In this document: in pieces, positions 23,509-36,164 of the stretch | Numbering within the stretch: the first letter of the stretch is position 1 | Layout: each line of letters opens with the position of its first letter | Virus record (IMG/VR): IMGVR_UViG_3300020429_000529 | Coordinates: 198,762-262,761 of that record | Length of the DNA stretch: 64,000 nt | Direction: 5' to 3' (one strand) | Source of the DNA: a virus | The notes under the pieces: generated by a model | Seen by the model: only the letters and a program-made list of their open reading frames with translations | Told to the model about the DNA's origin: nothing | Databases searched by the model: none | Program-made: the position numbers and the translations under genes

Positions 23509-24140
23509 TGCTATTTCAGTGTAGGACAAAGCTCAAGAATGCAATGGATGATCCCAAGATCCGAAGCGTGCTTGAAATAGGCAGCGGCCTAAATGCTACT
23601 CCGGTCATCGTCAAGAAGTTTGATCGAGGAGCTATCGACCGCTATGTTTCTCTTGAAACAAGTTCCGAATGGGCTGAGAAGGTCAACGGCAAGTGCAAGA
23701 GAGAAGTCGTCACGCTGGCGGACTTTGGCTTCGACAAAGAACGAGGCATCTTTGCGTATGACTACAGCAGCGTTTACAAGTTTGATCTCATCTTCGTAGA
23801 TGGGCCTGGCAAGCTTCAGGGAGACGACTATAGCGCTGCGGTCAAGCTCTGCGAACAATCAGACTTTTGTTTGAGTTCTCCTACCGCTGCTGGTATCCAG
23901 TCCATCCATATGATCGAGGCATTCCGCAGCAACATCCATGACGATACGGTTATCATGGTAGACGGTCGCAGGGCGGCTGTCCTCTATTATCTGAGCAGGT
24001 ATCAGGATGAGTTTGATTTCTTCTTTGGCGGGACTCCGTATCCCAAGAAGCGACTCAAGGAAATACTGAAACCAGAGTTTCGCCATCTCGCTAAATTCAA
24101 TGTCGGAGAAATCACGACCATGGTAAGGAAGAAGAAGTGA
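23508..24140 (+). CDS. putative class I SAM-dependent O-methyltransferase (Methyltransf_24-like)
   Basis: VLEIGSGLN motif I and DLIFVDGPG (compare DLIFIDGDH). Confidence 0.45.
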   Translation: MLFQCRTKLKNAMDDPKIRSVLEIGSGLNATPVIVKKFDRGAIDRYVSLETSSEWAEKVNGKCKREVVTLADFGFDKERGIFAYDYSSVYKFDLIFVDGPGKLQGDDYSAAVKLCEQSDFCLSSPTAAGIQSIHMIEAFRSNIHDDTVIMVDGRRAAVLYYLSRYQDEFDFFFGGTPYPKKRLKEILKPEFRHLAKFNVGEITTMVRKKK

Positions 24141-24787
24141 GAGTATTTGACTTTAGCACAGCAAGGCAAGCCGATGCGGTTGTTGTGATCGGCGGCGGTC
24201 CAACCGCAGGCAGACGGCTGCCAGATGCTCGAAAGTTCGCAGAAGAACGAGGCGCTCTCGTCTATTCGGCCAACTATGAGCATGACGATTTGCCTTCAGA
24301 TTACATCTGCTTCGCTACGCCATCGAAGTTCAAAGAGTGTCTCAACAAGAAACCGAACTGCAAAGATCTTGTTGTTCGAGACAAGGTGGCTCCAAAGACC
24401 AAGAGGTATCCTGGGTACAACTATTACCAGTTCTGCTCGCAAGACGCCAGCGATGGGGCATATTCGATCAAGAGCATCCCCTTGACAAAGTATGGTCATT
24501 TCCCCCTTTACAACATTGGTAACGCTGGCTTTTCAACCATAGCCCTCGCTTGCTTGAGCAGACCCAAGGATATGCTTCTTGTTGGCTTTGATGGATTGAG
24601 AGACGAAAGCAGTAAGCTCACATACGAAAACAAAGTCATGGCGTATCCTGCAAAGAAGGGCGCTGACAAGAAGATCTACTTCGGCAAGGTCATTCTTCAG
24701 TTTGCCCTTGATAGGGGCATACGGTTGCATGCCTTTGAGGATGACGCCCTATGGGGATGGCAGAGTAAGGCAAATATCATCGCATGA
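24137..24787 (+). CDS. DUF115/GT42-like protein, paralog 3
   Basis: VVVIGGGPTAG ... LLVGFDGLRDE has the same GxGPS + GxDG architecture as the 12727 and 13512 genes. Confidence 0.4.
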   Translation: MRVFDFSTARQADAVVVIGGGPTAGRRLPDARKFAEERGALVYSANYEHDDLPSDYICFATPSKFKECLNKKPNCKDLVVRDKVAPKTKRYPGYNYYQFCSQDASDGAYSIKSIPLTKYGHFPLYNIGNAGFSTIALACLSRPKDMLLVGFDGLRDESSKLTYENKVMAYPAKKGADKKIYFGKVILQFALDRGIRLHAFEDDALWGWQSKANIIA

Positions 24788-25443
24788 AGAATGTAAGCTA
24801 CGACATTTTCAAGCCTGTTGATTCGGTAATCATCATGGCTGCGGGACCATCTATCAGCAGTAACTTTGATGGTATACGCAGGTTCCAGGCGGAGAATCCT
24901 GATCACGTGGTTCTTGCTTGCAACTATGATTTTCCGATTGATGCGGAGTATACGGTCTTCATAGACAATGGCAGATATCGCAGGTTCATCGATTCGATTC
25001 GTAGCCCCAACATCATCATTGCTCCCTACTTTGGGCCTTGGCTTAAGAAGAAGCACTTCACGGCAGATCGTACCTTCTACAAGCTAAAATGGAATGCTGA
25101 CGTACAGCCATATGACGTAAGCGGAATTCTCGTCAACAAAGATGGCAGTACGGGTCATAAGCTTGGCAACTGCGGAATGACATGCTTGTATCTTGCTCAC
25201 ATGTTTAGGCCAACCAAGGTTCTTGTTGCTGGTCTCGACGGCCCTCAGCCTGACAATAAGACTGTCAAGCATTTCAACAATATCACAAGGACTTGGACTA
25301 AGAAAGACATCGATCGAGTAGATCCGAAGAAGAAGTACCTTCGAAAGCTTGTCAAGTTTTTGCGAGCAAGAGGTGCGGAGACTTACACGTTTAGTAACTG
25401 TCCTTTTTGGGAACAGCAGAGCATAGCGAGGATTTGGGAATGA
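24784..25443 (+). CDS. DUF115/GT42-like protein, paralog 4
   Basis: VIIMAAGPSISS ... VLVAGLDGPQPDN. Confidence 0.4.
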   Translation: MKNVSYDIFKPVDSVIIMAAGPSISSNFDGIRRFQAENPDHVVLACNYDFPIDAEYTVFIDNGRYRRFIDSIRSPNIIIAPYFGPWLKKKHFTADRTFYKLKWNADVQPYDVSGILVNKDGSTGHKLGNCGMTCLYLAHMFRPTKVLVAGLDGPQPDNKTVKHFNNITRTWTKKDIDRVDPKKKYLRKLVKFLRARGAETYTFSNCPFWEQQSIARIWE

Positions 25444-26102
25444 GCCTGGTAGAGGCATTCATCTTCACTAATGGAGCAGAAATTGCCAAGCATTGCGAGC
25501 AATGCCTGAAGGCGCAGACGGTTCCCTGCCCATATCGCATTATACAAGGCAAGTCTCTGTTGGATGCGATACAGTTTGCCATGGAAGAGAGCGTATCGGA
25601 TTTCTTCATCAAGCTCGATGATGACATGTTGCTTCATCCGAGAGCGATTGAGTATCTAACTCCGAGGCTAAGGGTCTGTAGAGAGCGACGAAATCTCGCT
25701 ATGTACGGATGCAGGCTATGGGAGCCTTGGGGCAATAGGACAATTCGTTGCATCAAGGCATACAAGACCAAGGCTTGTCGAGACATTGGTTTTCGATCAG
25801 ACAAGAGAGGCAAGATAGATCGCGCCTTTGTTGCCGATATGACTCAGAAGGGGTACAGGCATCTGCAGGATCGAAGCGTGATTGCCGTTCATGGTTTGAG
25901 ATCGCTTTCGGATCAGCAGCAGTATCGTCGGCTTTGGGCCAGGAATGCTGGCAAGACCGTTTCTGAACTAAGATCGGTAGACAAGGATCAGACTCGCATT
26001 GTCTCAGTCGTTCCTTCATACAAAAAACAGGTCAAATGGATTCGCAAAATTGACACTGTAAACGAGAAGACCAAGTTTGGCAAGTTGCTAAGAGATGGGT
26101 AA
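25440..26102 (+). CDS. putative GT-A-like glycosyltransferase / hypothetical
   Basis: N-terminal layout with IKLDDDMLLHP (DxD-like). The ORF track starts at 25407. Weak call. Confidence 0.3.
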   Translation: MSLVEAFIFTNGAEIAKHCEQCLKAQTVPCPYRIIQGKSLLDAIQFAMEESVSDFFIKLDDDMLLHPRAIEYLTPRLRVCRERRNLAMYGCRLWEPWGNRTIRCIKAYKTKACRDIGFRSDKRGKIDRAFVADMTQKGYRHLQDRSVIAVHGLRSLSDQQQYRRLWARNAGKTVSELRSVDKDQTRIVSVVPSYKKQVKWIRKIDTVNEKTKFGKLLRDG

Positions 26103-26904
26103 TCGCATACGACAACTTTTCACGTTTCCTCAGGTTCAGCATCTACATGATCGGCTGAAGGCGAGGTACGGTCTTGAGGATCGGGCGACTAAGAAGGCTC
26201 CGATGATTTCCTTCGGCTGCTATCCTGGTAGCAAGAAAGAGATCCAGATGTTACTTAAGCAGCAGGATCTTGTCGTTGTCGTTTGGGCCGGTAGCGATGC
26301 CATGTATATGAGAATGCCCAAGCATCGCGAGATGATGAAGGCGGTCAAGAAGGCATCTCATTTCCGTCATATCGCTATCTCTCAATACATTGTCAAAGAC
26401 CTCAAAGCTCTCGGGATACGCCATGAGTTTCTCCCGGTTTCGCAGGTCAACGAATCAATGTTTTCGCCCGAGCCTATGGGGGACAGTATCTTCTTCTACG
26501 ATTCAGTTTCATCTCGTAAGAGCGTTTTCTATGGAAGCGAGATTGTCAAGGAGATCAAGGCCAAGATGCCTGGCGTCAAGTTTGTCTCGGGCGCTCAGGC
26601 AGGTAAGACTCATGTTTCATACGCATCAATGCCCGATGTCTATCGGAAGTGCTTCTTAGGACTAAGGCCGACCCCTCATGATGGTTTGCCGAATACGGCG
26701 GTTGAACTCGGCCTCATGGGACGGAGATGCATTTGCAATCATGAGCTACCAAACTGCCTTCGCTACAGAGATGTCAAAGACATCATGGAGATTATCGAGC
26801 GAGAGCAGGGTCGTATTGGTCAAACGGATATTGAGACGGCTGAAAAGATGAAACGATACATCAGTATACCTGATGATTGGCTAAATGAGGATCACTATGG
26901 CTGA
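26095..26904 (+). CDS. hypothetical protein, possibly glycosyltransferase-like
   Basis: GLRPTPHDGLPNTAVELGLMGRRCICN is weakly like a GT-B C-terminal segment. Confidence 0.3.
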   Translation: MGNRIRQLFTFPQVQHLHDRLKARYGLEDRATKKAPMISFGCYPGSKKEIQMLLKQQDLVVVVWAGSDAMYMRMPKHREMMKAVKKASHFRHIAISQYIVKDLKALGIRHEFLPVSQVNESMFSPEPMGDSIFFYDSVSSRKSVFYGSEIVKEIKAKMPGVKFVSGAQAGKTHVSYASMPDVYRKCFLGLRPTPHDGLPNTAVELGLMGRRCICNHELPNCLRYRDVKDIMEIIEREQGRIGQTDIETAEKMKRYISIPDDWLNEDHYG

Positions 26905-27562
26905 ATGGAATGCAAATAAGACTCGGATTATCTATGAGAGCGAAGAAGAGTTCTTGGAGATTCAATCTGGTCGAACCAAGGATGAACTTGAGCCTTACGA
27001 CTCAACGCAATACCCGCAAGTTGTAACTGATCTTCTTCGATTCTATCCCTACATCGAGAAGAACTCGTTGATCCTTGATGCTGGATGCAGAGACGGATGG
27101 ACCATGCTCCGCATGAAGGAAGATGGTTATAATTGCGTCACTGGTGTTGATGTTGTTCCAAGGGCTATCGATTTCTGTCATCAGAGGGGGCTGAACGCTT
27201 CTGTTCAGAACATTCAAGAGATGGACTTCGATGACGCCTCGTTTGATGCTGCCTTTTGCAGGCATACGCTTGAACACACCATCAACCCCAAGAAGGCATT
27301 GAAGGAGATGGCGAGGGTCGTAAAGCCCGGTGGCGTCGTCTTTGTAATCATTCCCATTGAGTCAGGCAAGAGGAAGCTCAAGGCGAGACGGAAGATCAAG
27401 TTTGGTCACTCTTATGTCTTTGAAGGCGACAACAAGTTCCTTGAACTGATCGATGATTCTCTATACAAGCTGGTTGGCCGATTCCATGACCAAACCATCA
27501 AATACATTGCTTCGATTTTTGTGCTGAGAAGGAGATCCGATGACGACGAAGCTGATAGCTGA
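26885..27562 (+). CDS. class I SAM-dependent methyltransferase
   Basis: ILDAGCRDGWTM (motif I), VTGVDVV (motif II) and VKPGGVVFV (post-III). Confidence 0.65.
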   Translation: MRITMAEWNANKTRIIYESEEEFLEIQSGRTKDELEPYDSTQYPQVVTDLLRFYPYIEKNSLILDAGCRDGWTMLRMKEDGYNCVTGVDVVPRAIDFCHQRGLNASVQNIQEMDFDDASFDAAFCRHTLEHTINPKKALKEMARVVKPGGVVFVIIPIESGKRKLKARRKIKFGHSYVFEGDNKFLELIDDSLYKLVGRFHDQTIKYIASIFVLRRRSDDDEADS

Positions 27563-28337
27563 ACTGTCAATGAACTTCATGGGCGACATGGAGCTTGCCG
27601 AAGAGATGATCTCTGCTGCCGCTCATGCAGGCGCAGATTACGTCAAGTTTCAAACCTGGAAGGTTGACAAGCTTGTAGAAGGTCCATGGGACAATGATGG
27701 GCGTCGAGAGGTCTACGAGAAGGCAGAGCTTTCTGAGGCCGATCATGAGCATCTGAAGGTCATCTGCGAGGCGAATGGGACGAAGTTCTTGACTTCGGTC
27801 TTCTCTCCTGATCTGCTCCCCATGGTCAGCGGTCTGAGCGATTCTGTGAAGATCGCAAGCACCGAATGTTGCAATCGAGAACTGATCGATCAAGCAACAA
27901 GGTTGTTTGAGAATGTCTTTGTGAGCGTTGGCGCTACGAATGCCGAAGACTACCGATATCTTGCGGATATCGAGAATGTCTACATGTTGCATTGCGTTTC
28001 GGCATACCCTTGTCCTGCAGATCAAGTCAACATGCCTCGCCTTGACTACATCAGGAGTTTGACTCCTCGCTTTGGTTATAGCGGTCATTACTTTGGCATA
28101 TGGGATGCTATTGCTGCCATCAGCAGAGGCGCAACAGTTGTAGAGAAGCACTTCACTACTGACCAATCTCTTCCGTTTCGAGATAACCAGTTTGCGATTT
28201 TGCCGCAAGATCTGGCTCTAATCAGAGAGTATGCCGATGAGTTCGATAGGATGAACATCGATCATGGGGTCGATATGCAATCCGCCGAGGCCGAAGTTAA
28301 GAAAGCGTACTCTGGCAGATGGATGGGCACCTCTTGA
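27540..28337 (+). CDS. second NeuB-family nonulosonic acid synthase (core TIM barrel)
   Basis: IAELSMNFMGDMELAEEMISAAAHAGADYVKFQTWK matches the NeuB/PseI N-terminus. Confidence 0.65.
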   Translation: MTTKLIAELSMNFMGDMELAEEMISAAAHAGADYVKFQTWKVDKLVEGPWDNDGRREVYEKAELSEADHEHLKVICEANGTKFLTSVFSPDLLPMVSGLSDSVKIASTECCNRELIDQATRLFENVFVSVGATNAEDYRYLADIENVYMLHCVSAYPCPADQVNMPRLDYIRSLTPRFGYSGHYFGIWDAIAAISRGATVVEKHFTTDQSLPFRDNQFAILPQDLALIREYADEFDRMNIDHGVDMQSAEAEVKKAYSGRWMGTS

Positions 28338-29251
28338 TACTGTATGTTGGTCCAACTGAATACATGGATCTTGTCAAAGAAGTTTCCGGCATGTCGGTTT
28401 TTGCCGTCAACGACGAGCGAGAGATTGACATTCTCATACCGGAATGCGAATACATCCTCGATGCTTGCGTCAAGATCCCTTTTGATGCCAAGAGACTTTC
28501 GAGGGCCATGGTACTGAGGGCTTATGTTGCGGCATCAACGGGCACTTCTCACATTGATGTCGATCATCTTTCCGAGAGAAACATCCCGGTTTTGTCTCTT
28601 CTTGGTCGTCCTGAGATCAAGAATATCACATCGGCTGCCGAGCATTCATGGCATTTGTTGATGGCCGCTGCCAGAAATGTAAGAGCCTCAACGCAGCATG
28701 TTATCGACGGAGAGTGGGATCGGATGGCCTTCGATTCTCCCATGTTCATCGGTAGAACGCTTGGCGTCATCGGCTGCGGACGCATCGGAACTTGGATGGG
28801 AAGATACGCAACCGCTTTTGGCATGAATGTTGTCGGTTGCGATCCTCACGTGTCTGATTGGGAGTTTGAGCTTGCCGATATGGACGAGGTTCTGAGTCGT
28901 TCAGATTTTGTCACGATCAATGTCGCTTTGACCGATGATACGAAAGACATGATCGATCATGCTCAGTTGATGAAGATGAAGGATGGGGTCATCCTTGTCA
29001 ATACCTCCAATGGAGGCGTCATCAATGAGTACGCCTTGGCAGATAAGCTGATGTCGGGTAAGGTAGCTGCTGTAGGTCTTGATGTTCTGAAGAACGAACC
29101 CAACGTTCAAGAGAGCCCCCTTCTTGTTCTGGCTCGAAAGAATCCGAACATTGTCATAACCCCTCATATCGGAGGACGTAGCAGCGATGCCCTCAAGTAC
29201 GTCATCAAGTTCTGCGCAGAGCGAATCAGGGACCACGCCATACCTCGTTGA
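28319..29251 (+). CDS. D-isomer-specific 2-hydroxyacid dehydrogenase (phosphoglycerate dehydrogenase-like)
   Basis: Its NAD-binding motif is GVIGCGRIGTWMGRYATAFGMNVVGCDP. Catalytic-region motifs are present (VTPHIGG). Confidence 0.65.
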   Translation: MDGHLLILYVGPTEYMDLVKEVSGMSVFAVNDEREIDILIPECEYILDACVKIPFDAKRLSRAMVLRAYVAASTGTSHIDVDHLSERNIPVLSLLGRPEIKNITSAAEHSWHLLMAAARNVRASTQHVIDGEWDRMAFDSPMFIGRTLGVIGCGRIGTWMGRYATAFGMNVVGCDPHVSDWEFELADMDEVLSRSDFVTINVALTDDTKDMIDHAQLMKMKDGVILVNTSNGGVINEYALADKLMSGKVAAVGLDVLKNEPNVQESPLLVLARKNPNIVITPHIGGRSSDALKYVIKFCAERIRDHAIPR

Positions 29252-30611
29252 TGTAGCCTTTGGCGTTACGGGTAGCGGCAAATCTTGGCGAGTCGCCGAC
29301 AGCCTTGGGCCTCGATACATTCCGACGTATCACGAGGCTTCTGCTGCAATTATGGCCGGGGCTGTGAGTCTCAAAGGTTTCTTAGGGGCATCTCTTTCGA
29401 TCAAAGGGCCGGGCCTTACGAATGCCTTGCCGGGCATTGCAAACAACTTCTTTGAGAATCGACCGGCTCTCTCGATTTCTGAGCGATTCGAAGACGGATC
29501 AGAAAAGGCCCACAAAAGAGTAGACCATGACGCTCTCTTGCGACCCCTTGTGAAGGCAAGAGGACGACAAGGCTCTGACCTTGAAGTTCTATGGCATCGA
29601 GCAAGGATAGAACCTTGCGGTCCTGTTCATCAAGATCTTTGCGAGGGCGGAGAGATAGTTGTCGAGGCAGATCCGTATCGCCTGGATCCTGATGATTATC
29701 GCAAATCAAAGAGACCATCCATCCTTCTTGGAGGCGCTGCCTTGCGGAAGGGCGTTGATTTTTCGGGCGTCAACGTGCCCGTCTTTACGACTGCGACAGC
29801 GAAGGGTCTTCTCGATGAGTCGTTACCTCAGAGCGCTGGCGTCTTTACCGGGGTTGGGCTTGAGAACACCTGCGAGCCAATGACTGTTGCGGGCGATTGC
29901 GTTATCTGCGTTCAGGTTTACGATCATGAGCTTCTTTCTCCGCCTCCGAGGGCTAAGCACATAACGCTGAATGGCGTTGATGAGTTGCTGTCGTTCTTGG
30001 ATGGTAAAGAATGGGGTCTCCCGGTCATAGAGAAGACCAAGAGACAGCTTTCTGAGTTCAACATGGACGCCTGGTTGCCCTATCAGGCGTTTGACCATCT
30101 CAGCGCCCTTCCATGGCATCATGATGTTGTTGTCGATGTGGGGCTGTTCTCTGTCGTTGGAGAGCATGTCTGGCGGGCGTCTCCTGATAGAGGGTTCTAC
30201 GGAAGCCTGAATAGCCGCTATATGGGGACGGCGATCCCAACGGCCATCGGTCTCGGAGCAGTAAGCAAGAAGCCTATTTTCTGCGTCACCGGCGATGGCG
30301 GTTCCAATATGTACCTGACTGAGGCAAGAATCGCAGCAAACAGATCGATGCCCATCTGCTTCGTCATCATGTCCGATGGACGTTACGGAAGTATCGCACA
30401 GTCTTCGTCTGAACTGTATCAAGATGCTGTGAATATCTCTGCTCCCGATCATCGGGTTTTTGAAACATTTGGCATAGAGACTCATCAGGCTTTCTCGTTC
30501 AACTCTTTCGCGCACTACGTCGATACTTGGGATAGGGAATCTCCGCTCGCAATCTTCTGCTCGTTTGACCAAGATAGATATGCGACAATGACGAGAGGCT
30601 TGCGAAGATGA
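29187..30611 (+). CDS. thiamine-diphosphate-dependent enzyme (acetolactate synthase / sulfopyruvate decarboxylase / YerE-like carboligase family)
   Basis: The N-terminal Pyr domain is VDVAFGVTGSG. The C-terminal TPP-binding motif is GDGGSNMYLTEARIAANRSMPICFVIMSDGRYGSI (GDG-x24-N). The start overlaps the upstream gene by 65 nt. Confidence 0.6.
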   Translation: MPSSTSSSSAQSESGTTPYLVDVAFGVTGSGKSWRVADSLGPRYIPTYHEASAAIMAGAVSLKGFLGASLSIKGPGLTNALPGIANNFFENRPALSISERFEDGSEKAHKRVDHDALLRPLVKARGRQGSDLEVLWHRARIEPCGPVHQDLCEGGEIVVEADPYRLDPDDYRKSKRPSILLGGAALRKGVDFSGVNVPVFTTATAKGLLDESLPQSAGVFTGVGLENTCEPMTVAGDCVICVQVYDHELLSPPPRAKHITLNGVDELLSFLDGKEWGLPVIEKTKRQLSEFNMDAWLPYQAFDHLSALPWHHDVVVDVGLFSVVGEHVWRASPDRGFYGSLNSRYMGTAIPTAIGLGAVSKKPIFCVTGDGGSNMYLTEARIAANRSMPICFVIMSDGRYGSIAQSSSELYQDAVNISAPDHRVFETFGIETHQAFSFNSFAHYVDTWDRESPLAIFCSFDQDRYATMTRGLRR

Positions 30612-31582
30612 AGATACTGATACTTGGCGCTGGTTCGGTCGGTAAACGACATGCTCGTAATCTGAAAGAGCTTGGCGCTGATGTGTCTGTTTTTGACCCC
30701 AGGGAAGACCGTCGCAAAGAATGCGAAGACTTTACCGAATACCAGTTTGATGATTTAGTTTCTGTGTTTGATATCAACTGGGACGGAGCCGTTATAGCTT
30801 CGCCTCCTCATGTCCACTGCGAGCAGTTGCAGATGCTCGCAGAACGAAACATCCCGACTCTTCTTGAGAAACCGATCTGTCCAACAAGAGACGCTGCCCT
30901 TGAGACGTACAGAAAGATCGGCGGCTTCTCCAAGAAAGTCATTCTTGGGTACTCGTATCGCTGGTGGGCTCCGTTCTTGTTCTTCAAAGAGAGTCTGAGC
31001 GAGGTTGGCGATATTTTGCGAGTTGAATGCAGTATGGCTGCTCATCTTGAGGATTGGCATCCTTGGGAGTCTTACAAGGATTTCTTCATGGCTCATAAAG
31101 AGCAGGGCGGAGGCGCTTTGCTGGATGAGAGTCATGTTATTGATCTCATGCTGTGGCTATTTGGCGCTCCCAGGAAGCTTTTTGGCTGCGTAAGCAAGGT
31201 CAGCGACCTCGATATCACGACCGATGACAATGTTGACACAATCTGGTATTACGATGATAAGATCGTTCAGATTCATCTTGATTTGCATCGTCGTCCGCAT
31301 GAAAGGTCCATCAAGGCTTACGGTACAAATGGTCAGTTGACATGGAGCTTTGACGAGGTTCGCATGGACCCTAAAGACGGACCAGGTAGATCTCATAAGT
31401 TTGAGATAGAACGCAACGAAATGTTCATGCATACGGCAAGAGAGTTCTTGGATTTCATTCGCAACGGGTCTCCTTTGCGATGCTCGCTTGCCGATGGTAT
31501 ATGGGCTCTCGATATGGTTGAGGCCATCAGAGAAAGTTCACAGAAGGAAGAGGTAGTCAAATGCTCTCTGTCGCGATTGTAG
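30608..31582 (+). CDS. Gfo/Idh/MocA-family NAD(P) oxidoreductase
   Basis: MKILILGAGSVGKRHARNL Rossmann N-terminus and EKP motif (LLEKPICPT). Confidence 0.65.
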   Translation: MKILILGAGSVGKRHARNLKELGADVSVFDPREDRRKECEDFTEYQFDDLVSVFDINWDGAVIASPPHVHCEQLQMLAERNIPTLLEKPICPTRDAALETYRKIGGFSKKVILGYSYRWWAPFLFFKESLSEVGDILRVECSMAAHLEDWHPWESYKDFFMAHKEQGGGALLDESHVIDLMLWLFGAPRKLFGCVSKVSDLDITTDDNVDTIWYYDDKIVQIHLDLHRRPHERSIKAYGTNGQLTWSFDEVRMDPKDGPGRSHKFEIERNEMFMHTAREFLDFIRNGSPLRCSLADGIWALDMVEAIRESSQKEEVVKCSLSRL

Positions 31583-32232
31583 TCAATGCAAGGCTCGGTT
31601 CTTCGAGACTGCCGAACAAGATCATCAAGCCTTTCGGAGACACAACTCTCCTTGATATCGCTCTGAAGAAACTTGCAGCCATCGATAATCGAGAGAAGTA
31701 TCTCGCTGTTCATGACCAAGAACTGATCGATATCTATCGGAAGTACGAGAACGACATAGGCCTTATAGTGAGGTCTCCTGAATCGGTAGAGAAGGGAGCG
31801 GTTCCTCATCATATCGCTTTCCAGCACTACATGGATGTCAACGCCGATTCTGTCATGGTCATGAACCCTTGCCATCCCTTTACTCGACCTGAGACATACG
31901 AGAATGCTATTCAGCACTATATCGCAAAGGGTATGAGGTCCATGACATCTGTTGTCAAGAAGGAGAACATCTTCTTCGACCAGAACGGAGGGGTCGTGAA
32001 CTCCTCAAAGCAAAGGGAAGTCACGACTGTTGGGCATGACGCTCTATTCGAGATGGCGCATGCCTTCCATATCTTCCCGAAGAATGCCTTCCAAGAGGGC
32101 AGCAAAATTTGGAGCTATGAGTACGGCGATCCTGAGATGTATATTGTTGACAAGATGTCAGCCCTTGATGTAGATGATGAGATCGACTTCGCTCTCTGCG
32201 AAGGACTATACAAGAGCAATGCGAGAGATTAG
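31561..32232 (+). CDS. second CMP-sugar cytidylyltransferase (CTP_transf_3 family; CMP-nonulosonate synthetase-like)
   Basis: VAIVVNARLGSSRLPNKIIKPFGDTTLL is the N-terminal signature. Confidence 0.6.
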   Translation: MLSVAIVVNARLGSSRLPNKIIKPFGDTTLLDIALKKLAAIDNREKYLAVHDQELIDIYRKYENDIGLIVRSPESVEKGAVPHHIAFQHYMDVNADSVMVMNPCHPFTRPETYENAIQHYIAKGMRSMTSVVKKENIFFDQNGGVVNSSKQREVTTVGHDALFEMAHAFHIFPKNAFQEGSKIWSYEYGDPEMYIVDKMSALDVDDEIDFALCEGLYKSNARD

Positions 32233-32818
32233 TCTTGAACAATACATCATATCGAGAAGACCGATACTTGACAAAGAAGGCAAGTTCATTTTCTTCCCCA
32301 CGCATAAAGCATGCATGACATCCATTCAGCATGTGCTGAGGGATCGTATACTGACTCACAAAAAGCATGGTAAGAAGTACCAGAAGGCATTGAGAGCGGC
32401 AGCGGCATACCCCAAGGGGTACTACAAGTTCACGGTTGTTCGCAATCCCTATGACAGAACACTGTCTGCTTACAGGTATCTGAGCAAGATCAAGAGATAT
32501 CGAACTCTTGCGGAAGATAGGTTTAGGGACTTTTGCGTTAAGGGACTGGTTGGCTATTTGGGAGATGCGCATTTTTCGCACCAGCATCACAATGTCATGT
32601 TCCAAAACAGTCAGTTTGTTGACTTCGTTGCAAGATTCGAGAACATCGATACTGATTGGGAGATAATCGCTAACACGATTGGCTGCAAGGCCTCGCTTCC
32701 TGTCAAGAATGCGTCGAAGAAGAAGGTTGACTATCGAGACTACTACACGGACATGTCCAAGAAGACAGTCAAAAAGATATACAAGAATGATCTGAGGATA
32801 TTAGGGTATGACTTCTAA
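32174..32818 (+). CDS. second carbohydrate sulfotransferase
   Basis: FIFFPTHKACMTSIQHVL (5'-PSB-like) and VRNPYDRTLSAYRY (3'-PB RDPxxRxxSxY-like). Confidence 0.6.
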   Translation: MMRSTSLSAKDYTRAMREISLEQYIISRRPILDKEGKFIFFPTHKACMTSIQHVLRDRILTHKKHGKKYQKALRAAAAYPKGYYKFTVVRNPYDRTLSAYRYLSKIKRYRTLAEDRFRDFCVKGLVGYLGDAHFSHQHHNVMFQNSQFVDFVARFENIDTDWEIIANTIGCKASLPVKNASKKKVDYRDYYTDMSKKTVKKIYKNDLRILGYDF

Positions 32819-33911
32819 GCTCGTCGTTCCAATGTCAAACCGAACGAACTACACGAAGATACGCCCCGTGTTGTTTGAGCTTCAGAAGCATCCTGAGGTT
32901 GATGTCTCGGTTATTCTTAGCTCGGCCATACTCCTTGACGAGTACGGAGGAGCATGCAAGGATATAGAGAAGGACGGCTTCAGGATCGCCGCCAACATTG
33001 ATTGTCTATTCAAGAGCGATAGCCTCTCTGCAATGTCAAAGACGGTTGCGGTGTCTCTTCTTGAGCATACCTCGACCTTTGATCGCATCGAAGCAGATGG
33101 CATGATGTTGGTTGGAGATCGATTTGACATTTTGGGCTCTGTGCTTGCGGCAAGAATGCTCAATGTCCCGATCTTTCATATTCAGGGCGGCGAGATCACT
33201 GGCTCGATTGATGATGCTGTTCGAGACATGATTAGCGTCTGCTCTTCGAGGCATTATGTTGCCACCGATGCAGCCGCAGAACGGCTCAAGTCGATTGTCA
33301 AGCAGCCAGAGAACATCTTCAACTACGGCTGCCCTGCTGTAGAGATGATTGCCAAGACAATCATCGGAGATCCATGCCATGAGGTTTGGGGGCAAGTCGG
33401 ATTGAGCTACGGCGAAGAGTTTTTCTTGATTGCTCTCCATCCCAATACGGATGACAAGAACGATGTCGATTTCGATGTCATTATGGATGGCGTCAATCAG
33501 TTTGACAAGAAGTGTCTGATCTTTCAGCCAAATCCTGATGCGTTCAACTCGTACATCAGAGACAAGATGAACGCCATGAACTCGGACAGGCTCAGGGTCA
33601 TCAAGCATTTGCCGGTTGAATCGTTCGTTGTTCTGATGGCTCATACCAAATGCATGATCGGGAACTCAAGCGCTGGTATTCGAGAGGCCGCAAGCTTCGG
33701 AACGCCTGTTGTCAACATTGGCAAGAGGCAGAGATTCAGAGAGAGAAATCACAACGTGATCGATGTAGATTGCGGGAAAAATGAGATCGCTGATGCGATA
33801 ACGAAGTCTCTTGAAATCGGTCGATACGAGAGAAAGAACATCTATTACAAGACGGATGCATCGAAGCTCATTGCGAGCGATATTGTTTCAACTCTAACGG
33901 AGAAGTCATGA
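32808..33911 (+). CDS. neuC: UDP-N-acetylglucosamine 2-epimerase (NeuC-like, probably hydrolysing)
   Basis: The overall epimerase_2 layout is present. The N-terminal segment is TNYTKIRPVLFELQKHPEVDVSVI. The HIQGGE motif and the C-terminal GNSSAGIREA segment are present. Confidence 0.7.
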   Translation: MTSKLVVPMSNRTNYTKIRPVLFELQKHPEVDVSVILSSAILLDEYGGACKDIEKDGFRIAANIDCLFKSDSLSAMSKTVAVSLLEHTSTFDRIEADGMMLVGDRFDILGSVLAARMLNVPIFHIQGGEITGSIDDAVRDMISVCSSRHYVATDAAAERLKSIVKQPENIFNYGCPAVEMIAKTIIGDPCHEVWGQVGLSYGEEFFLIALHPNTDDKNDVDFDVIMDGVNQFDKKCLIFQPNPDAFNSYIRDKMNAMNSDRLRVIKHLPVESFVVLMAHTKCMIGNSSAGIREAASFGTPVVNIGKRQRFRERNHNVIDVDCGKNEIADAITKSLEIGRYERKNIYYKTDASKLIASDIVSTLTEKS

Positions 33912-34846
33912 AGATACTTGTCACAGGAGCTTCGGGTCAGATCGGAGCCAATCTCATAGATCGCTGGGAAGGCGAGGCCGTTGGCGTTGACCGCAACCCT
34001 CAACCATGGCCCATTAGCCACGATCGATTGGAGTTCGTACACGCTGATCTTATGGACCCGAACTGGCATGAATCAGTCAACTGGAACGACATCGACTTCC
34101 TTGTTCATTTTGCTGCATATGCCAAGGTTCATGAACTTGTTGTTGAGCCTCGAAAGGCGCTGGAGAACATTCAGGTTCTCTACAATGCTCTCGAAGTTGC
34201 CCGAGACAAGAAGTTGCCGTTTCTCTTTTCGAGTTCGAGAGAGGTCTACGGCAATATCCAAGAAAGGGATCGTCCCATCGATGAGGACGATTACGACCTC
34301 ATGCAGGAGAGCCCCTACAGCGCAAGCAAGCTCTCGGGAGAGGCAATGGTTCATGGGTTCGCCAACTGCTACGGCATGAAGTGCGGCATCATTCGCTTCA
34401 GTAATGTGTATGGGCGATTTGACAACGATCTTGAGAGAATGGAGCGAGTGATCCCGCTGTTCTTCAAGAAGATAGCCAACGATGAGCCGATCGAGGTTTA
34501 TGGGCCTGAGAAGACTCTTGACTTCACATATGTTGCGGACGCTGTTGCGGGTATCAAGTCTGCCATCCGTCATGTCAGCGAGAAAATGAAACCAGGAAGC
34601 GTTGAGACGTTCAATCTGGCTTATGGGAGCGGGCACTCGCTGAGAGAGCTTGTGATGTTCATTTCCGAGGCTGTAGGCAAGGTTCCCGACGTTTCTTGGC
34701 AGAAGCCCAGGGTAGGAGAGGTCTGTTGGTATGTTGCGGATATTGACCATGCGAAGACATGGCTTGATTTTGATCCTCAAGTGAGTCTTCGAGAGGGGAT
34801 TCAAAAAACCGCCCAATGGTACAGGGAGACTGGATTCATCTCATGA
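33908..34846 (+). CDS. NAD-dependent epimerase/dehydratase (extended SDR)
   Basis: MKILVTGASGQIGANLI (GxxGxxG) and YSASK catalytic motif. Confidence 0.7.
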   Translation: MKILVTGASGQIGANLIDRWEGEAVGVDRNPQPWPISHDRLEFVHADLMDPNWHESVNWNDIDFLVHFAAYAKVHELVVEPRKALENIQVLYNALEVARDKKLPFLFSSSREVYGNIQERDRPIDEDDYDLMQESPYSASKLSGEAMVHGFANCYGMKCGIIRFSNVYGRFDNDLERMERVIPLFFKKIANDEPIEVYGPEKTLDFTYVADAVAGIKSAIRHVSEKMKPGSVETFNLAYGSGHSLRELVMFISEAVGKVPDVSWQKPRVGEVCWYVADIDHAKTWLDFDPQVSLREGIQKTAQWYRETGFIS

Positions 34847-34889
34847 ATCTGGCCGATGTCATAGAATGTAACTGCAGGAGGATCTCTAA

Positions 34890-35753
34890 ATGCAAACAGT
34901 AGCCATCATCGGTCACGGATACGTTGGTCAAGCGATGACCGGATTCTTCCGAGACCATTACAACCTCGTTGTTGTTGACACCAAGTTCGCAGGCGATATC
35001 GTTGAGGGGCAGGTCGGCGGAACCGATCCGATCTGCACTTTCACCAAGGACTACAGAGCCGCCAATGGCGCAGACCTCGTTGTCGTCTGTCTGCCAACTC
35101 CGAGAGACGAAAAGGGGTTCTGCGATACCTCTCTTGTCGAAGAGGCGTTGCGGACGATTGAGGCTCCGTTCTTCATCATCAAGTCTACGGTTGAGCCTGG
35201 AACGACCAAGAAGCTCCAAGAAGAGACAGGCAAGAACATTGTCTTTGCTCCCGAGTTCGCTGGTGAGTCAAGGTACTGGACTGAATACAAGTTCCACACG
35301 GATGTCAAGGAGACGCCATGGTTTGTCTTCGGAGGCGAGCCCGAGTGGACGGAGAAGGCAGTCCAGTTCTACATCAAGGTTGCAGGCCCAACCAAGACCT
35401 ATCATCAGACAGACTGCACTACGGCGGAACTCGTCAAATACATCGAGAACACTTTCTTCGCCATGAAGGTTGCTTTCTGCTATGAAGTCGATCAGGTCTG
35501 CAAGACCTTTGGCGTTGACTACTACAAGCTTCGCACTGCTTGGTTGCTTGATCCAAGGCTCAGCCCGATGCATACGGCAGTCTTCGAGGAGAGCGAGAAG
35601 CCATTCGGCGGTAAGTGCTTCCCGAAGGACGTTTCTGCGATCGTAGAAGCAAGCTCTGCTAATGGATATGAACCTGAGTTGCTCAGGGAAATCTTGAAGT
35701 CAAATGAGCGCATTGGCGAGATTAGGCGAGAGCAGCACGCCAAGAAACAGTGA
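34890..35753 (+). CDS. UDP-glucose/GDP-mannose dehydrogenase family protein lacking the C-terminal UDP-binding domain
   Basis: N-terminal VAIIGHGYVGQAMT NAD-binding motif. The catalytic motif FGGKCFPKDV (GGxCFxKD) is present. The ORF ends about 100 aa short of the full-length family. Confidence 0.5.
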   Translation: MQTVAIIGHGYVGQAMTGFFRDHYNLVVVDTKFAGDIVEGQVGGTDPICTFTKDYRAANGADLVVVCLPTPRDEKGFCDTSLVEEALRTIEAPFFIIKSTVEPGTTKKLQEETGKNIVFAPEFAGESRYWTEYKFHTDVKETPWFVFGGEPEWTEKAVQFYIKVAGPTKTYHQTDCTTAELVKYIENTFFAMKVAFCYEVDQVCKTFGVDYYKLRTAWLLDPRLSPMHTAVFEESEKPFGGKCFPKDVSAIVEASSANGYEPELLREILKSNERIGEIRREQHAKKQ

Positions 35754-35846
35754 GATTTACAAGCGCTTTGCGTGGAATGCTCAGTGAAACTTGCAGGTAT
35801 CTCCGATTTTAAGTTATAGCGTCAGGCTACAACTACGGAGAACACC

Positions 35847-36164
35847 ATGCCACGCCGAAGGAAAAAGATACAGGAAGAGTTTCCATACGAAGCTACGGCT
35901 GTCATCAACATGGACGACATTTATGCGGTCATCAACTATGTTCAGTTGTCCCGCAAGAACTGCTCGTTCATTGCTGATACAGACGATTCAATCACAATGG
36001 AACATCTCTTCAAGGATTGTGAGATCAGCTTTTCGAAGCTACCCGACCCCAGCGGAGTCAAGTATAGTTTAGAGCCTCCTCCAGTGAATGCTATTCCTGA
36101 GGAGGCTTTTTTGATCGATGAAGACTACGACGACGAGATTACTGAAGAAGGTCAGTGTTTCTGA
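35847..36164 (+). CDS. hypothetical acidic protein
   Basis: 105-aa ORF preceded by a 93-nt intergenic gap. Confidence 0.35.
   Translation: MPRRRKKIQEEFPYEATAVINMDDIYAVINYVQLSRKNCSFIADTDDSITMEHLFKDCEISFSKLPDPSGVKYSLEPPPVNAIPEEAFLIDEDYDDEITEEGQCF

Follow-up and report, generated by a model that had tools for sequence, protein, structure and literature searches.

Gene content of the locus

The window analysed here, a stretch of 64,000 nucleotides, comes from a circular replicon of about 0.5 Mb, probably a marine huge phage, and it includes a 23-kb glycan island. Four adjacent plus-strand genes of this island had been singled out in the first-pass annotation as an atypical sugar-tailoring block (27540-31582), and Pfam searches bear out both the reading frames and their domain assignments. 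The first gene encodes a NeuB-family nonulosonate synthase of a short form without the SAF domain (27540-28337; PF03102, 154.7 bits), which scores 152 bits against TIGR03569 NeuB_NnaB, below the cutoff of 399.65, and 118.5 bits against PseI. It is followed by the genes for a D-2-hydroxyacid dehydrogenase of a cassette-specific subfamily (HADH, 28319-29251; PF02826, 2-Hacid_dh_C, 166.6 bits), a ThDP-dependent ALS-like enzyme that is the signature of the cassette described below (29187-30611; TPP_enzyme_N 42.6 and TPP_enzyme_C 53.3 bits), and a Gfo/Idh/MocA NAD(P) sugar oxidoreductase (GFO, 30608-31582; PF01408, PF22725 and PF02894, the GFO_IDH_MocA N- and C-terminal domains). The proposed limits hold for these four genes but are too narrow for the block, which also comprises, on the same strand, a CMP-ulosonate synthetase-like cytidylyltransferase (CTP_transf_3, 31561-32232; PF02348, 50.2 bits) and a NeuC-type hydrolysing UDP-GlcNAc 2-epimerase (32808-33911; TIGR03568, 311.4 bits, above the cutoff of 235.9).

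Two further plus-strand genes probably belong to the block as well, namely a class I SAM methyltransferase (26885-27562; Methyltransf_11, 76.7 bits), which overlaps the NeuB gene by 23 nt and is probably an accessory O-methyltransferase, and an accessory sulfotransferase (32174-32818; PF03567, 41.8 bits) that is a paralogue, at 30 % identity, of another one at 22891-23508. An SDR epimerase/dehydratase (33908-34846, plus strand; PF01370, 145.8 bits) and a short gene resembling nucleotide-sugar dehydrogenases (34890-35753, plus strand; TIGR03026, 154.5 bits, profile positions 65-298 of 413) close the island but lie outside the conserved cassette; homologues of the SDR or of the UGDH occur at a few of the compared loci only.

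The remainder of the island provides another route to a nonulosonate, together with four Maf-like transferases. The second nonulosonate module (12727-16317, plus strand) encodes two Maf/DUF115-like transferases (MptE-like, 36.7 and 36.6 bits), a CMP-transferase (CTP_transf_3, 76.6 bits), another NeuB of 290 aa (208.9 bits) and a HAD protein resembling KdsC (82.8 bits) and KDN-9-P phosphatase (69 bits); a match to the phrog_4603 'sialyltransferase' family was also found in this module. Between it and the methyltransferase gene lies a glycosyltransferase and tailoring stretch (17719-26904, plus strand) with six GT1/GT2 genes assigned by Pfam, the sulfotransferase at 22891-23508, three unassigned ORFs and two further DUF115-like paralogues (24137-24787 and 24784-25443, plus strand), which share 25 % identity, a GxGPS motif and a weak MptE match. 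A radical SAM protein encoded at 16692-17675 (radical SAM domain, 35.9 bits) had been considered a possible sugar-modifying partner of the block. It does not belong to the cassette, as no homologue of it was found in the 59 non-redundant loci described below. Its best NCBIfam match is of the AmmeMemoRadiSam type (187 bits, cutoff 220), and the protein resembles an AmmeMemoRadiSam/activase-type enzyme more than a sugar C-methylase.

The four flagged genes are translationally coupled. They are not chance ORFs, since each has hundreds of homologues and strain differences are almost all synonymous, and purifying selection on them is strong (pN/pS 0.01-0.05). In a strain pair with 98.5 % nucleotide identity, synonymous and non-synonymous changes number 16:2 in NeuB (pN/pS 0.03), 20:1 in HADH, 13:2 in the ThDP gene and 21:2 in GFO, and the NeuC gene is similarly constrained (pN/pS 0.01). 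Every reading frame is intact, with 0 indels across 21,260 bp. No gene of the island escapes purifying selection (overall pN/pS 0.04), and this includes all those at 17719-26904.

A conserved six-gene cassette

Comparative genomics, suggested in the first-pass annotation as a check on the block, demonstrates that in other genomes, too, it is closely and consistently associated with genes for NeuB, NeuC and a CMP-transferase. The genes for NeuC, NeuB, HADH, the ThDP enzyme, GFO and the CMP-transferase form a conserved six-gene cassette. We collected 59 non-redundant loci, of which 57 contain the ThDP gene; among the 43 that are long enough, 33 have the complete set of six. The taxonomic range exceeds 12 bacterial phyla and includes two methanogens, with bacterial loci from Bacteroidota, Gamma-, Alpha- and Deltaproteobacteria, Acidobacteriota, Chloroflexota, Planctomycetota, Gemmatimonadota, Omnitrophota and Firmicutes (Cohnella), and archaeal loci from Methanocella and Methanoregula. 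The ThDP gene directly follows HADH in 52/55 loci and has GFO downstream of it in 46/52; a CTP_transf_3 gene, nearly always immediately after GFO, is found in 41/50, and NeuC and NeuB in 37/43 each. Synteny is strict, with HADH, ThDP and GFO placed between NeuC and the CMP-transferase. Conservation is higher in these three tailoring genes, whose median identity to the window is 33-43 %, versus 26-30 % for NeuB, NeuC and the CMP-transferase.

As in the window, methyl- and sulfotransferase genes recur beside the cassette elsewhere: a Methyltransf_23/11 gene lies within or adjoining it in 20/59 loci, and Sulfotransfer_3 genes flank it in 11. A short NeuB (261-265 aa) is found at the equivalent place in locus L006 and on the contig of P0002. 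In the loci examined, we found no acyl- or alkyl-transferase gene conserved together with the cassette. A literature search found no paper describing the cassette. At one locus, from Litoribacillus (L031), HADH, ThDP and GFO occur alone, next to an IS element.

The three tailoring enzymes

The ThDP gene must start at the ATG at 29187, in a 65-nt overlap with the upstream gene. Public gene calls begin at Met56 (P0001, 419 aa), which would cost the protein its GVTGSG strand and the catalytic Glu50; codons 33 and 46, upstream of Met56, carry synonymous changes between strains. The invariant Glu50 and the diphosphate-Mg motif GDGG...SDGRYGS are kept. The protein has 474 aa, compared with about 520 in homologues, and a reduced middle domain, about 45 aa shorter than theirs, that scores 22.5 bits against TPP_enzyme_M, below the Pfam cutoff of 30.4. 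P0002, its closest relative, is just as short and lies in an identical gene order. The AF2 model (pLDDT 93) has three domains and an ALS-like architecture, and Foldseek aligns it with solved structures at TM 0.77-0.80 and about 20 % identity.

The first-pass annotation asked for a detailed classification of this enzyme. At 62.8 bits its best NCBIfam match falls far short of the cutoffs (about 500), so it does not group with the ALS of amino-acid pathways, and its three domains set it apart from the two-domain SPDC and PPDC. As a single sequence it best matches 5AHK in the PDB (66 bits); the family profile gives 222 bits for catabolic ALS, 149 for 5AHK and 129 for JanthE. FAD binding is unlikely, since the nearest solved relatives found with the profile are the FAD-independent catabolic ALS. 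The nearest solved relatives (catabolic ALS, CEAS, AHAS and 5AHK) are all carboligases, and the enzyme is probably one as well. With 155 clusters at E<=1e-30 among 1.84 billion representatives, the sequences place it in a rare ALS-like family of its own, distinct from amino-acid-pathway ALS, SPDC and PPDC.

GFO keeps 54 of the 57 family-conserved positions, including E87-K88-P89, D173 and H176, and its best NCBIfam match is the inositol 2-dehydrogenase IolG (76 bits). Characterised enzymes of the family act on sugars or cyclitols, and GFO probably catalyzes a step that forms or reduces a keto-sugar. The best PDB match of the family profile is 3EZY (120.9 bits), which is also the reported closest structure of ElaA, a 323-aa Gfo/Idh/MocA enzyme that, according to its published description, is encoded beside a CTP-transferase gene and proposed to make CMP-8-keto-legionaminate (PMC13656337). 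The best PDB match of HADH is the M. tuberculosis PGDH (154 bits), and its orthologues have retained the Arg-Glu-His triad typical of 2-oxoacid enzymes. The catalytic R231 is present in 119/119 homologues and 48/49 orthologues, but the copy in the window and its four strain variants have Asn231, although the gene is strongly conserved (20 synonymous changes against 1 non-synonymous).

A proposed pathway and its alternatives

The first-pass annotation had suggested a non-standard, modified nonulosonate, and this is the best reading because the ThDP enzyme stands apart from amino-acid ALS and the block is conserved with sugar genes. NeuC, NeuB and the cytidylyltransferase have established family functions, and NeuB-family enzymes use PEP. 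The further idea that the ThDP enzyme supplies NeuB with an unusual 2-oxoacid for its condensation finds no support, given this use of PEP and the aldose-making NeuC in the cassette. We infer the substrates of the three tailoring enzymes, their order and the product as follows. From their family functions, NeuC would convert UDP-GlcNAc to ManNAc, NeuB would join ManNAc to PEP, forming a 2-oxoacid of the Neu5Ac type, and the cytidylyltransferase would yield the CMP-sugar. One hydroxyl of the (CMP-)nonulosonate may then be oxidized to a ketone by GFO, by analogy with ElaA, whose proposed site is C8 of CMP-legionaminic acid and whose activity is itself only 'proposed' (PMC13656337). HADH could provide the donor, a small 2-oxoacid such as hydroxypyruvate formed from D-glycerate, and the ThDP enzyme would decarboxylate this donor and attach the resulting acyl anion at the keto carbon, so that a C-branched nonulosonate is formed. 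The same ThDP logic has been shown for the acyl-branched sugars of YerE, ErwE and MyGE, and modules combining cluster-encoded 2-oxoacid donor supply, a ThDP carboligase and an NAD(P)H reductase, sometimes with a methyltransferase, have been described (PMC9306805). The neighboring methyl- and sulfotransferases would decorate the sugar, and the Maf/DUF115-like enzymes and glycosyltransferases of the island would place it in a glycan.

YerE-type branching is a live model, but the specific keto-acceptor scheme is doubtful. The acceptors known for YerE-type enzymes are CDP-deoxy-keto-hexoses and not CMP-ulosonates (PMC12247030), and, since catabolic ALS scores above the YerE-like 5AHK and JanthE, the ThDP enzyme is not demonstrably one that accepts ketones as YerE does. 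The HADH triad fits donor supply loosely, as pyruvate needs no dedicated supply, and the pathway does not explain a conserved HADH that lacks its catalytic Arg. We know of no C-branched nonulosonic acid.

Neu5Ac might instead be the ThDP donor: the aldol-type 2-oxoacid from NeuB would undergo decarboxylation on ThDP, as in the ErwE/MyGE scheme, and the C8 acyl anion would be joined to a small acceptor of the ALS or glyoxylate-carboligase type, such as glyoxylate. GFO would then reduce the new 3-ketone, HADH would oxidize the new 2-hydroxy acid to a 2-oxoacid, and the resulting chain-extended C10 3-hydroxy ulosonic acid would be activated by the cytidylyltransferase. This purely inferential scheme, which we consider unlikely, keeps the canonical chemistry of every enzyme, makes the two dehydrogenases a redox-neutral pair and agrees with the 2-oxoacid or glyoxylate acceptors of the ThDP relatives, with the carboxylate-binding Arg of the HADH orthologues and with the better conservation of the tailoring genes, which fits chemistry at the invariant keto-acid end. 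ThDP enzymes taking polyhydroxylated C4-C8 2-oxoacid donors exist (PMC9306805), and unassigned CMP-activated C10 ulosonic acids, with no genes linked to them, are reported in Magnetospirillum (bioRxiv 10.64898/2026.04.20.719630), which however is not among the cassette-bearing genomes recovered. The one-carbon shift would put the N-acetyl group at the position needed for pyranose ring closure, and CMP activation would therefore have to take place on a furanose or septanose form; moreover, the Arg essential to the scheme is absent from the HADH of the window.

Slightly less probable is a remodelling of the side chain that involves no branching. GFO might oxidize a side-chain hydroxyl in the manner of ElaA, and the ThDP enzyme, as a transketolase- or IolD-like lyase, would cleave the alpha-hydroxy-ketone so formed and trim the C7-C9 tail. 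IolG, the best NCBIfam match of GFO, acts upstream of the ThDP-dependent C-C hydrolase IolD; on chemical reasoning, the tail of 8-keto-Neu5Ac carries the ketol motif that ThDP lyases cleave. The second dehydrogenase would reduce or oxidize the new end, and the product would be either an epimer or an analogue of sialic acid with 7 or 8 carbons. However, the ThDP enzyme has carboligases as its closest relatives and no IolD-type model among its best 25 NCBIfam matches, and HADH would be left with no 2-oxoacid substrate unless the tail were first converted to a carboxylate, for which the cassette has no conserved gene. To our knowledge, truncated sialic acids do not occur as natural products. Oxidation and re-reduction of a CMP-nonulosonate does have a precedent in ElaA/ElaC (PMC13656337).

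The trio could also make a small non-sugar unit, for example by oxidation of a hydroxy acid, its decarboxylation into an aldehyde or acyloin and a final reduction, that another enzyme later attaches as a substituent to an ordinary Neu5Ac glycan. A hydroxyacid dehydrogenase followed by a ThDP decarboxylase is a known route to aldehydes, exemplified in coenzyme M synthesis by the conversion of sulfolactate to sulfopyruvate and sulfoacetaldehyde, and in Litoribacillus the trio stands alone beside the IS element. This origin is nevertheless improbable in view of the missing acyl- or alkyl-transferase, the strict placement of the trio between NeuC and the CMP-transferase, and the sugar or cyclitol substrates of characterised GFO enzymes. 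That the cassette is a decaying relic in this replicon, with a dead dehydrogenase (Arg231Asn), a truncated ThDP enzyme and plain CMP-Neu5Ac as its only product, is very improbable: the unique Asn231 and Asn201 substitutions, the about 45 aa missing from the ThDP enzyme and its departure from 13 of 83 family-conserved positions, and the lack of a SAF domain in NeuB would fit decay, but the mostly synonymous strain changes in all three tailoring genes disfavour it, as do the intact frames, the confident ThDP model and the equally short P0002 in the same gene order.

Implications

A dedicated pathway to a modified CMP-nonulosonate is quite likely. Our more specific proposal, in which ThDP-dependent C-C chemistry remodels the carbon skeleton of a CMP-activated nonulosonate of the Neu5Ac type, is put forward tentatively, at a little less than even confidence; the nearest precedents for such remodelling are ElaA-type oxidation and YerE/ErwE-type branching. 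In the bacteria, archaea and probable huge phage that carry it, the cassette most likely makes a still-undescribed sialic-acid-like sugar.

Genomic context of the cassette

The first-pass annotation had described an atypical sugar-tailoring block at 27540-31582, and its four ORFs were all recovered on the + strand exactly where it had placed them: a NeuB-family synthase (NeuB#2, 27540-28337), a D-2-hydroxyacid dehydrogenase (HADH, 28319-29251; PF02826, 166.6 bits), a ThDP-dependent enzyme (29187-30611; N, middle and C domains at 42.6, 22.5 and 53.3 bits) and a Gfo/Idh/MocA oxidoreductase (GFO, 30608-31582). The block is preceded by a SAM methyltransferase gene (26885-27562), and GFO is followed by genes for a CTP_transf_3 cytidylyltransferase (31561-32232), a sulfotransferase (32174-32818) and a NeuC-type hydrolysing UDP-GlcNAc 2-epimerase (32808-33911). 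On the + strand the ORFs follow one another without interruption, each overlapping or abutting the next (overlaps of 4-65 nt), and a consensus scan of 17500-37400 revealed no credible internal promoter or terminator, the promoter-like sites being at chance level and the terminator-like sites weak. The six genes encoding NeuC, NeuB, HADH, the ThDP enzyme, GFO and the CMP-transferase (cytidylyltransferase) are referred to here as the cassette.

NeuC scores above its curated equivalog cutoff (311 against 236 bits), whereas NeuB#2 and the cytidylyltransferase both fall below theirs. NeuB#2 matches PF03102 over residues 23-230 (154.7 bits, cutoff 22.1), reaches 152 bits with TIGR03569 (cutoff 399.65) and scores higher as a Neu/Leg than as a Pse type; a SAF/antifreeze-like domain was not matched anywhere in its 265 aa. 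A short, SAF-less NeuB occupies the same position at locus L006 and on the contig of P0002, the closest relative of the ThDP enzyme.

The cassette lies inside a glycan island of ~23 kb (12727-35753) that additionally encodes six glycosyltransferases, another sulfotransferase, an SDR and a short nucleotide-sugar dehydrogenase-like protein. The latter (34890-35753, 287 aa) covers positions 65-298 of the 413 profile positions and lacks the C-terminal domain. The ORFs at 23508, 25407 and 26095 received no assignment from PHROGs or Pfam. A second nonulosonate module (12727-16317) consists of two Maf/DUF115-like paralogues (54 % identical), a CMP-transferase, a 290-aa NeuB (NeuB#1) and a HAD protein resembling KdsC and KDN-9-P phosphatases, which suggests a 9-phosphate route of the Kdn or Neu5Ac-9-P type, independent of the cassette. 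Two adjoining unannotated ORFs at 24137-25443 are paralogues of each other (25 % identical) that share a GxGPS motif and match MptE/DUF115 weakly; if this pair is DUF115-like, putative nonulosonate transferases of the Maf-like kind would number four in the island.

The stretch separating the two sugar modules holds, at 16343-17675, a DUF1257 gene and a radical SAM gene whose product resembles the AmmeMemoRadiSam/activase type (16692-17675; TIGR04337, 187.2 bits against a cutoff of 220). The radical SAM gene is bordered by the DUF1257 gene and a GT1 gene, not by AMMECR1 or Memo partner genes, and the pair is without a counterpart beside the cassette at other loci. The first-pass annotation had proposed this radical SAM enzyme as a member of the pathway; it has no homologue in any of the cassette loci compared and is for that reason rejected as part of the pathway.

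Distribution and conservation of the cassette

Loci for comparison were found through peptide patterns of the ThDP family, so that the sample is conditioned on the ThDP gene and the counts do not reflect the frequency of the other five genes in its absence. Retrieval of the family's genomic surroundings yielded 57 distinct loci from GTDB species genomes, in addition to metagenome contigs; the window proteins were mapped onto 57 non-redundant loci, with only sufficiently long loci entering each denominator. An HADH gene lies directly upstream of the ThDP gene at 52 of 55 loci and GFO downstream of it at 46 of 52; the CTP_transf_3 gene is present at 41/50, and NeuC and NeuB each at 37/43. The comparative genomics that the first-pass annotation had proposed for the cluster accordingly finds the block conserved together with NeuB, NeuC and CMP-transferase genes, all six occurring jointly at 33 of 43 loci, most commonly in the order NeuB-NeuC-(methyltransferase)-HADH-ThDP-GFO-CTP.

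Carriers include Bacteroidota, several proteobacterial classes, Acidobacteriota, Chloroflexota (marine Dehalococcoidia), Planctomycetota, Gemmatimonadota, Omnitrophota, Rokubacteria, Actinobacteriota and Firmicutes, as well as the archaeal methanogens Methanocella and Methanoregula, and among cultured strains at least Cohnella laeviribosi DSM 21336 (Firmicutes) has the cassette in full. Recurrent neighbours are Methyltransf_23/11 genes (20 loci), an ABC exporter (18), a NodB-type deacetylase (16), a sulfotransferase (11) and putative glycosyltransferases; the methyltransferase and sulfotransferase of the window occupy places matching those at other loci. The best non-self match of the ThDP enzyme (P0002, 45 % identity) is encoded on a 9.5-kb contig that shares the window's gene order (NeuB-HADH-ThDP-GFO-CTP-NeuC), with a subtilase gene and a radical SAM/SPASM gene after it. 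Among viruses, the ThDP protein has no relative in IMG/VR and a single match in GenBank phages, of 21 % coverage, to mis-binned 'Listeria phage' contigs, and the DNA of 27000-32300 has no similarity match in GenBank phages.

Two loci depart from the common arrangement. In Litoribacillus peritrichatus JCM 17551 (L031, 6971-10522), HADH, ThDP and GFO genes occur with no NeuB, NeuC or CMP-transferase gene within 8 kb; an IS1595-family transposase and an ankyrin-repeat gene lie close by, and the trio is evidently able to move as one unit. At a marine locus (L065), the glycan cluster that carries the cassette holds a second set of sugar enzymes forming C-C bonds, encoded at 3751-5171 and 14848-18974: a split transketolase and an E1-type ThDP dehydrogenase pair, together with SIS, HAD and transaldolase genes.

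Classification of the ThDP enzyme

Among the candidates scored in an index of 5.8 billion proteins, 171 relatives of the ThDP protein were found at E<=1e-3, and when all of 1.84 billion cluster representatives were scanned, only 155 reached E<=1e-30; judged by these sequence searches, the family is rare but distinct. The public gene call begins at Met56 (419 aa). Since the GVTGSG strand and the invariant catalytic Glu50 lie upstream of this residue and are omitted from that call, the long ORF starting at ATG 29187 is needed. This start overlaps the HADH gene by 65 nt, and the counterparts at loci L004 and L006 overlap by 41 and 17 nt; such overlap would be compatible with a complex of HADH and the ThDP enzyme.

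The window enzyme is ~45 residues shorter than its homologues: its first helix is missing, as is a portion of the middle domain. It retains 70 of 83 family-conserved positions. Glu50 and the diphosphate-Mg motif (G369-D370-G371...D397) are conserved, and the protein belongs to the ALS-like ThDP enzymes (pyruvate-oxidase/decarboxylase superfamily) by PF02776 and PF02775, both above their cutoffs, with PF00205 at 22.5 bits below its cutoff of 30.4. The AF2 model (pLDDT 93; residues 1-13 disordered and Ser/Thr-rich) has three domains and matches ALS, POX and CEAS at TM 0.73-0.80. The best solved relative in a single-sequence search (66 bits) and the best Foldseek match (E 1e-28, TM 0.77, 20 % identity) are the same structure, 5AHK, which we take to be the YerE homologue (PpYerE) of Pseudomonas protegens of Hampel et al. 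2018. The family profile, compared with the PDB, places catabolic FAD-independent ALS first (219-222 bits), followed by CsmA, CEAS, BbmA, AHAS, pyruvate oxidase, 5AHK (149) and JanthE (129). No NCBIfam model comes near its cutoff, the best reaching 62.8 bits against 500.

The first-pass annotation had asked whether the enzyme is closest to YerE, SPDC, PPDC or ALS, and had held that firm grouping with ordinary acetolactate synthases of amino-acid metabolism, combined with a block not conserved with sugar genes elsewhere, would refute its reading of a branched or modified nonulosonate. Such grouping was not observed: a biosynthetic or catabolic acetolactate synthase (IlvB, AlsS) is rejected on the best ALS model (61.8 bits, cutoff 509) and on the nonulosonate gene context. 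SPDC and PPDC, two-domain proteins of ~370-400 aa, are rejected because a middle domain is present here, and neither has a model among the best 25 NCBIfam matches; the scanned cassette neighbours likewise contained no match to the PEP-mutase family. Among solved structures, the single sequence favours 5AHK and the family profile catabolic ALS. As to whether a middle domain binds FAD, which had also been asked, that domain is present in reduced form, and this reduction, together with the FAD-independent ALS as nearest profile relatives, makes FAD binding unlikely, so that the enzyme is probably not a flavoprotein. From scores, fold and relatives, the ThDP enzyme is classified as a separate branch of the ALS-like carboligase clade.

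Dehydrogenase and oxidoreductase

The closest solved relative of HADH is the PGDH of M. tuberculosis (154 bits), whose two phosphate-binding arginines are missing from the HADH family, which has the motif A-T-T-G-S-D-H instead. Aligned to 1YGY, the window HADH shows DACV and AASTGT at the VRSAT and GRAGxG sites of PGDH, the two Arg of which bind the substrate phosphate. D-3-phosphoglycerate dehydrogenase (SerA) is rejected on the missing arginines and on TIGR01327 (194.6 against 454 bits). The orthologues keep an Arg-Glu-His triad, of which the window retains Glu260 and His283 and has Asn in place of Arg231 (codon aat, 29009-29011), the catalytic, carboxylate-binding Arg that all 119 of the closest homologues keep, as do 48 of the 49 orthologues from cassettes. 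Asn also replaces the near-invariant His201, and both Asn231 and Asn201 are common to all four strain variants; the Asn231 enzyme has either a changed specificity or a non-catalytic role. GFO is assigned to its family by PF01408 (43 bits) and PF22725 (49.8 bits); E87-K88-P89, D173 and H176 are invariant in the family, and the window protein keeps 54 of 57 conserved positions.

Selection and composition

Between the window and a second strain (L066) there are 315 differences over 21,260 positions and not a single indel (98.5 % identity); Nei-Gojobori counting was applied to this pair. The ratios of synonymous to non-synonymous differences are 20:1 for HADH (pN/pS 0.01), 13:2 for the ThDP gene (0.05), 21:2 for GFO (0.03), 16:2 for NeuB#2 (0.03), 19:1 for NeuC (0.01) and about 256:39 for the whole island (0.04), with 11 synonymous and no non-synonymous changes in the short UGDH-like gene at 34890-35753. 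The two differences that the ThDP gene shows ahead of Met56 are both silent when read in the long frame. These pN/pS values imply that the block is maintained by selection, the Arg-less HADH and the short UGDH-like gene included, and pseudogenisation is rejected on the same values. Between 27 and 32 kb, GC climbs to a fraction of 0.51-0.52 and AT skew becomes negative (-0.03 to -0.07), whereas that of the flanks is positive; this anomaly hints at, and is consistent with, acquisition of the HADH, ThDP and GFO genes from another genome.

Proposed pathway and its alternatives

The established functions of the NeuC, NeuB and cytidylyltransferase families would provide a frame leading from UDP-GlcNAc through ManNAc and a Neu5Ac-type 2-oxoacid to a CMP-sugar, and because no dehydratase or aminotransferase is conserved with them, this sugar should not be of the legionaminic or pseudaminic type. 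HADH, ThDP and GFO genes are co-inherited more faithfully than those of the frame and no transferase accompanies them, so that the three extra enzymes most likely act on the sugar itself. On this gene content, the cassette probably specifies a dedicated pathway to a modified, C-C-remodelled CMP-nonulosonate. In one particular scheme, GFO would make a keto-(CMP-)nonulosonate, HADH would provide a 2-oxoacid donor and the ThDP enzyme would attach this donor to give a C-branched sialic-acid-type sugar, which would then be methylated or sulfated and transferred. This division of labour is drawn by analogy with the systems below and is put forward tentatively, as an assignment that may well prove wrong.

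The cassette resembles the NeuC-NeuB-NeuA pathway to CMP-Neu5Ac in its NeuC of equivalog rank, its NeuB-family synthase and its CTP_transf_3 cytidylyltransferase, and differs in the tightly linked HADH, ThDP and GFO genes added between the synthase/epimerase genes and the cytidylyltransferase gene and in the absence of a SAF domain from the window NeuB. The GFO step has a parallel in the ElaA-ElaB-ElaC module for 8-epi-legionaminic acid of A. baumannii KL49, where ElaA, a 323-aa Gfo/Idh/MocA enzyme encoded beside a CTP-transferase gene, is proposed to turn the C8 hydroxyl of CMP-legionaminate into a ketone, the substrate of a second reductase (PMC13656337). The cassette likewise has a GFO of ~323 aa beside a CTP-transferase gene in a nonulosonate locus, and 3EZY, the best PDB relative of the GFO family profile, is also the closest solved relative of ElaA (PMC13656337), so that the likeness of the two is judged through this structure and the gene neighbourhood. 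The second dehydrogenase is of the D-2-hydroxyacid type here and an SDR there, the ThDP enzyme is additional here, and the sugar would be of the Neu5Ac type here and is of the 5,7-diacetamido type there.

The branching step finds its parallel in the surface-glycan clusters of YerE/YerF, ErwE, MMAR_2332 and MyGE, in which an ALS-like, YerE-like ThDP carboligase acts on a keto-sugar with a 2-oxoacid donor whose route is encoded in the cluster itself, alongside one or more NAD(P)H oxidoreductases and sometimes a methyltransferase, the accepted donors ranging from pyruvate up to polyhydroxylated C8 acids (PMC9306805, PMC12247030). The acceptors there are CDP-3,6-dideoxy-4-keto-hexoses, whereas CDP-glucose pathway genes are absent from the cassette context, which is that of a CMP-ulosonate and not of a CDP-hexose; the adjoining candidate for keto-sugar formation beside the ThDP gene is GFO. 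The ThDP enzyme is only ~20 % identical to 5AHK, and its profile prefers catabolic ALS (222 bits) to 5AHK (149) and JanthE (129). YerE is reported to be a flavoprotein (Chen, Guo and Liu 1998), whereas the middle domain of the family studied here is reduced. FAD-independent AlsS is the best PDB relative by profile, over the full length and at TM ~0.8, with the catalytic Glu and the three-domain fold in common; the identity, however, is ~21 %, the NCBIfam AlsS models reach 56 and 49 bits against cutoffs of 510-551, and the cassette context is never that of acetoin or branched-chain amino-acid metabolism. Membership of ALS, PGDH, SPDC and PPDC is denied because the defining scores or residues of these families are missing. 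By analogy, the cassette would work like a NeuBCA pathway carrying an ElaA-like and YerE-like tailoring insert.

The strongest of the alternatives, though still unlikely, is that Neu5Ac itself serves as the ThDP donor and is ligated to glyoxylate, after which GFO and HADH transpose the carbonyl to yield a C10 ulosonic acid. Such a route would give every enzyme a canonical role and echo the unassigned CMP-C10 ulosonates of Magnetospirillum, but its product would be unable to close a pyranose ring, and it would make essential the very Arg that the window HADH has lost. Less probable is a shortening or epimerisation of the sugar tail with the ThDP enzyme as a lyase, and less probable again is the synthesis of a small substituent by the tailoring trio. 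Decay of the block in the phage is contradicted by the selection test and scarcely credible.

Nature of the replicon

The island is flanked on the window by replication and repair genes, comprising a UvsX/RecA-like recombinase, a DnaG-type primase, a Cas4-like exonuclease, Sipho_Gp157, UvrD, a DNA methylase, topoisomerase I, a T4-type dNMP kinase, a clamp loader, a sliding clamp, an HNH endonuclease, DnaJ, a Holliday junction resolvase and a CCA-adding enzyme. The 64-kb window contains no tRNA gene and no capsid or terminase gene. Contigs with its sequence were assembled repeatedly, from Tara Oceans samples and from others of marine origin, at lengths of 498,610, 498,618 and 502,461 bp, the last named 'ctg12106_378x_c'; ENA ERZ17089788 NODE_1289088 and ERZ25074452 ctg12106 represent this apparently circular contig. 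The assemblies suggest a complete replicon of ~0.5 Mb, which, on these circumstantial markers, is most probably that of a marine huge phage.

Two further genes of the window are recorded here. A subtilase gene at 53448-54509 (Peptidase_S8, 198.7 bits; phrog_3677 'protease') is the sole sizeable minus-strand gene of that stretch; as a subtilase gene also follows the cassette on the P0002 contig, that contig may come from a related element. The 914-aa protein encoded at 58421-61165 has a poly(A) polymerase/CCA-adding head domain at residues 323-460 and an HD domain at 572-669, and its N-terminal ~320 residues are without a domain match.

Biological significance

Sialic acids and the other nonulosonic acids (legionaminic and pseudaminic acids among them) influence immune recognition, the adsorption of phages and the chemistry of surfaces. 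To our knowledge, their tailoring concerns only heteroatoms (N-acylation, O-acetylation, O-methylation) or the epimerisation of a centre. A conserved ThDP enzyme encoded between the synthase and the CMP-transferase points to C-C remodelling of a sialic acid. A literature search combining nonulosonate or NeuB with thiamine, 2-hydroxyacid dehydrogenase or phage returned no published description of the cassette, and where these terms coincided in papers on Fusobacterium and on Thaumarchaeota the overlap was fortuitous; for BbmA and CsmA, which rank midway among the PDB relatives, only unrelated papers came up. The cassette is therefore read as a nonulosonate pathway whose tailoring is of a class without precedent; a 2025 review on ThDP enzymes that make tertiary alcohols makes no mention of sialic or nonulosonic acids.

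In its fullest form, which we regard as possible but doubtful, the interpretation is that a marine huge phage of ~0.5 Mb maintains, under purifying selection, a complete pathway to an undescribed sialic-acid-like sugar, with a skeleton branched or extended by the ThDP enzyme, and builds a sulfated or methylated sialoglycan of its own, and that the cassette represents an unrecognised type of nonulosonate across phyla. That the virus would build its own sialoglycan follows from the second nonulosonate route, the four Maf-type transferases, the at least six glycosyltransferases and the sulfo- and methyltransferases. Ulosonic-acid and glycan pathways encoded by viruses have precedents, such as the island of Kdo genes in Cafeteria roenbergensis virus and the glycosylated virions of mycobacteriophages. 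The likeness lies in a large virus with a multi-gene, bacterial-type sugar-acid pathway and glycosyltransferases; the difference lies in a prokaryotic, huge-phage-like replicon and in a nonulosonate type of sugar with two routes and four Maf-like transferases.

If this interpretation is true, a phage-made sialoglycan would be present on the virion or on the infected cell, and the cassette, a concrete six-gene target, would mark an unrecognised nonulosonate type in many bacterial phyla and in methanogenic archaea. It may also account for the unassigned higher-carbon CMP-ulosonic acids now being detected by mass spectrometry. With the cassette found inside the 23-kb glycan island of what is probably a huge phage, the glycosylation encoded by viruses of prokaryotes would come to include sugars of the sialic-acid type.
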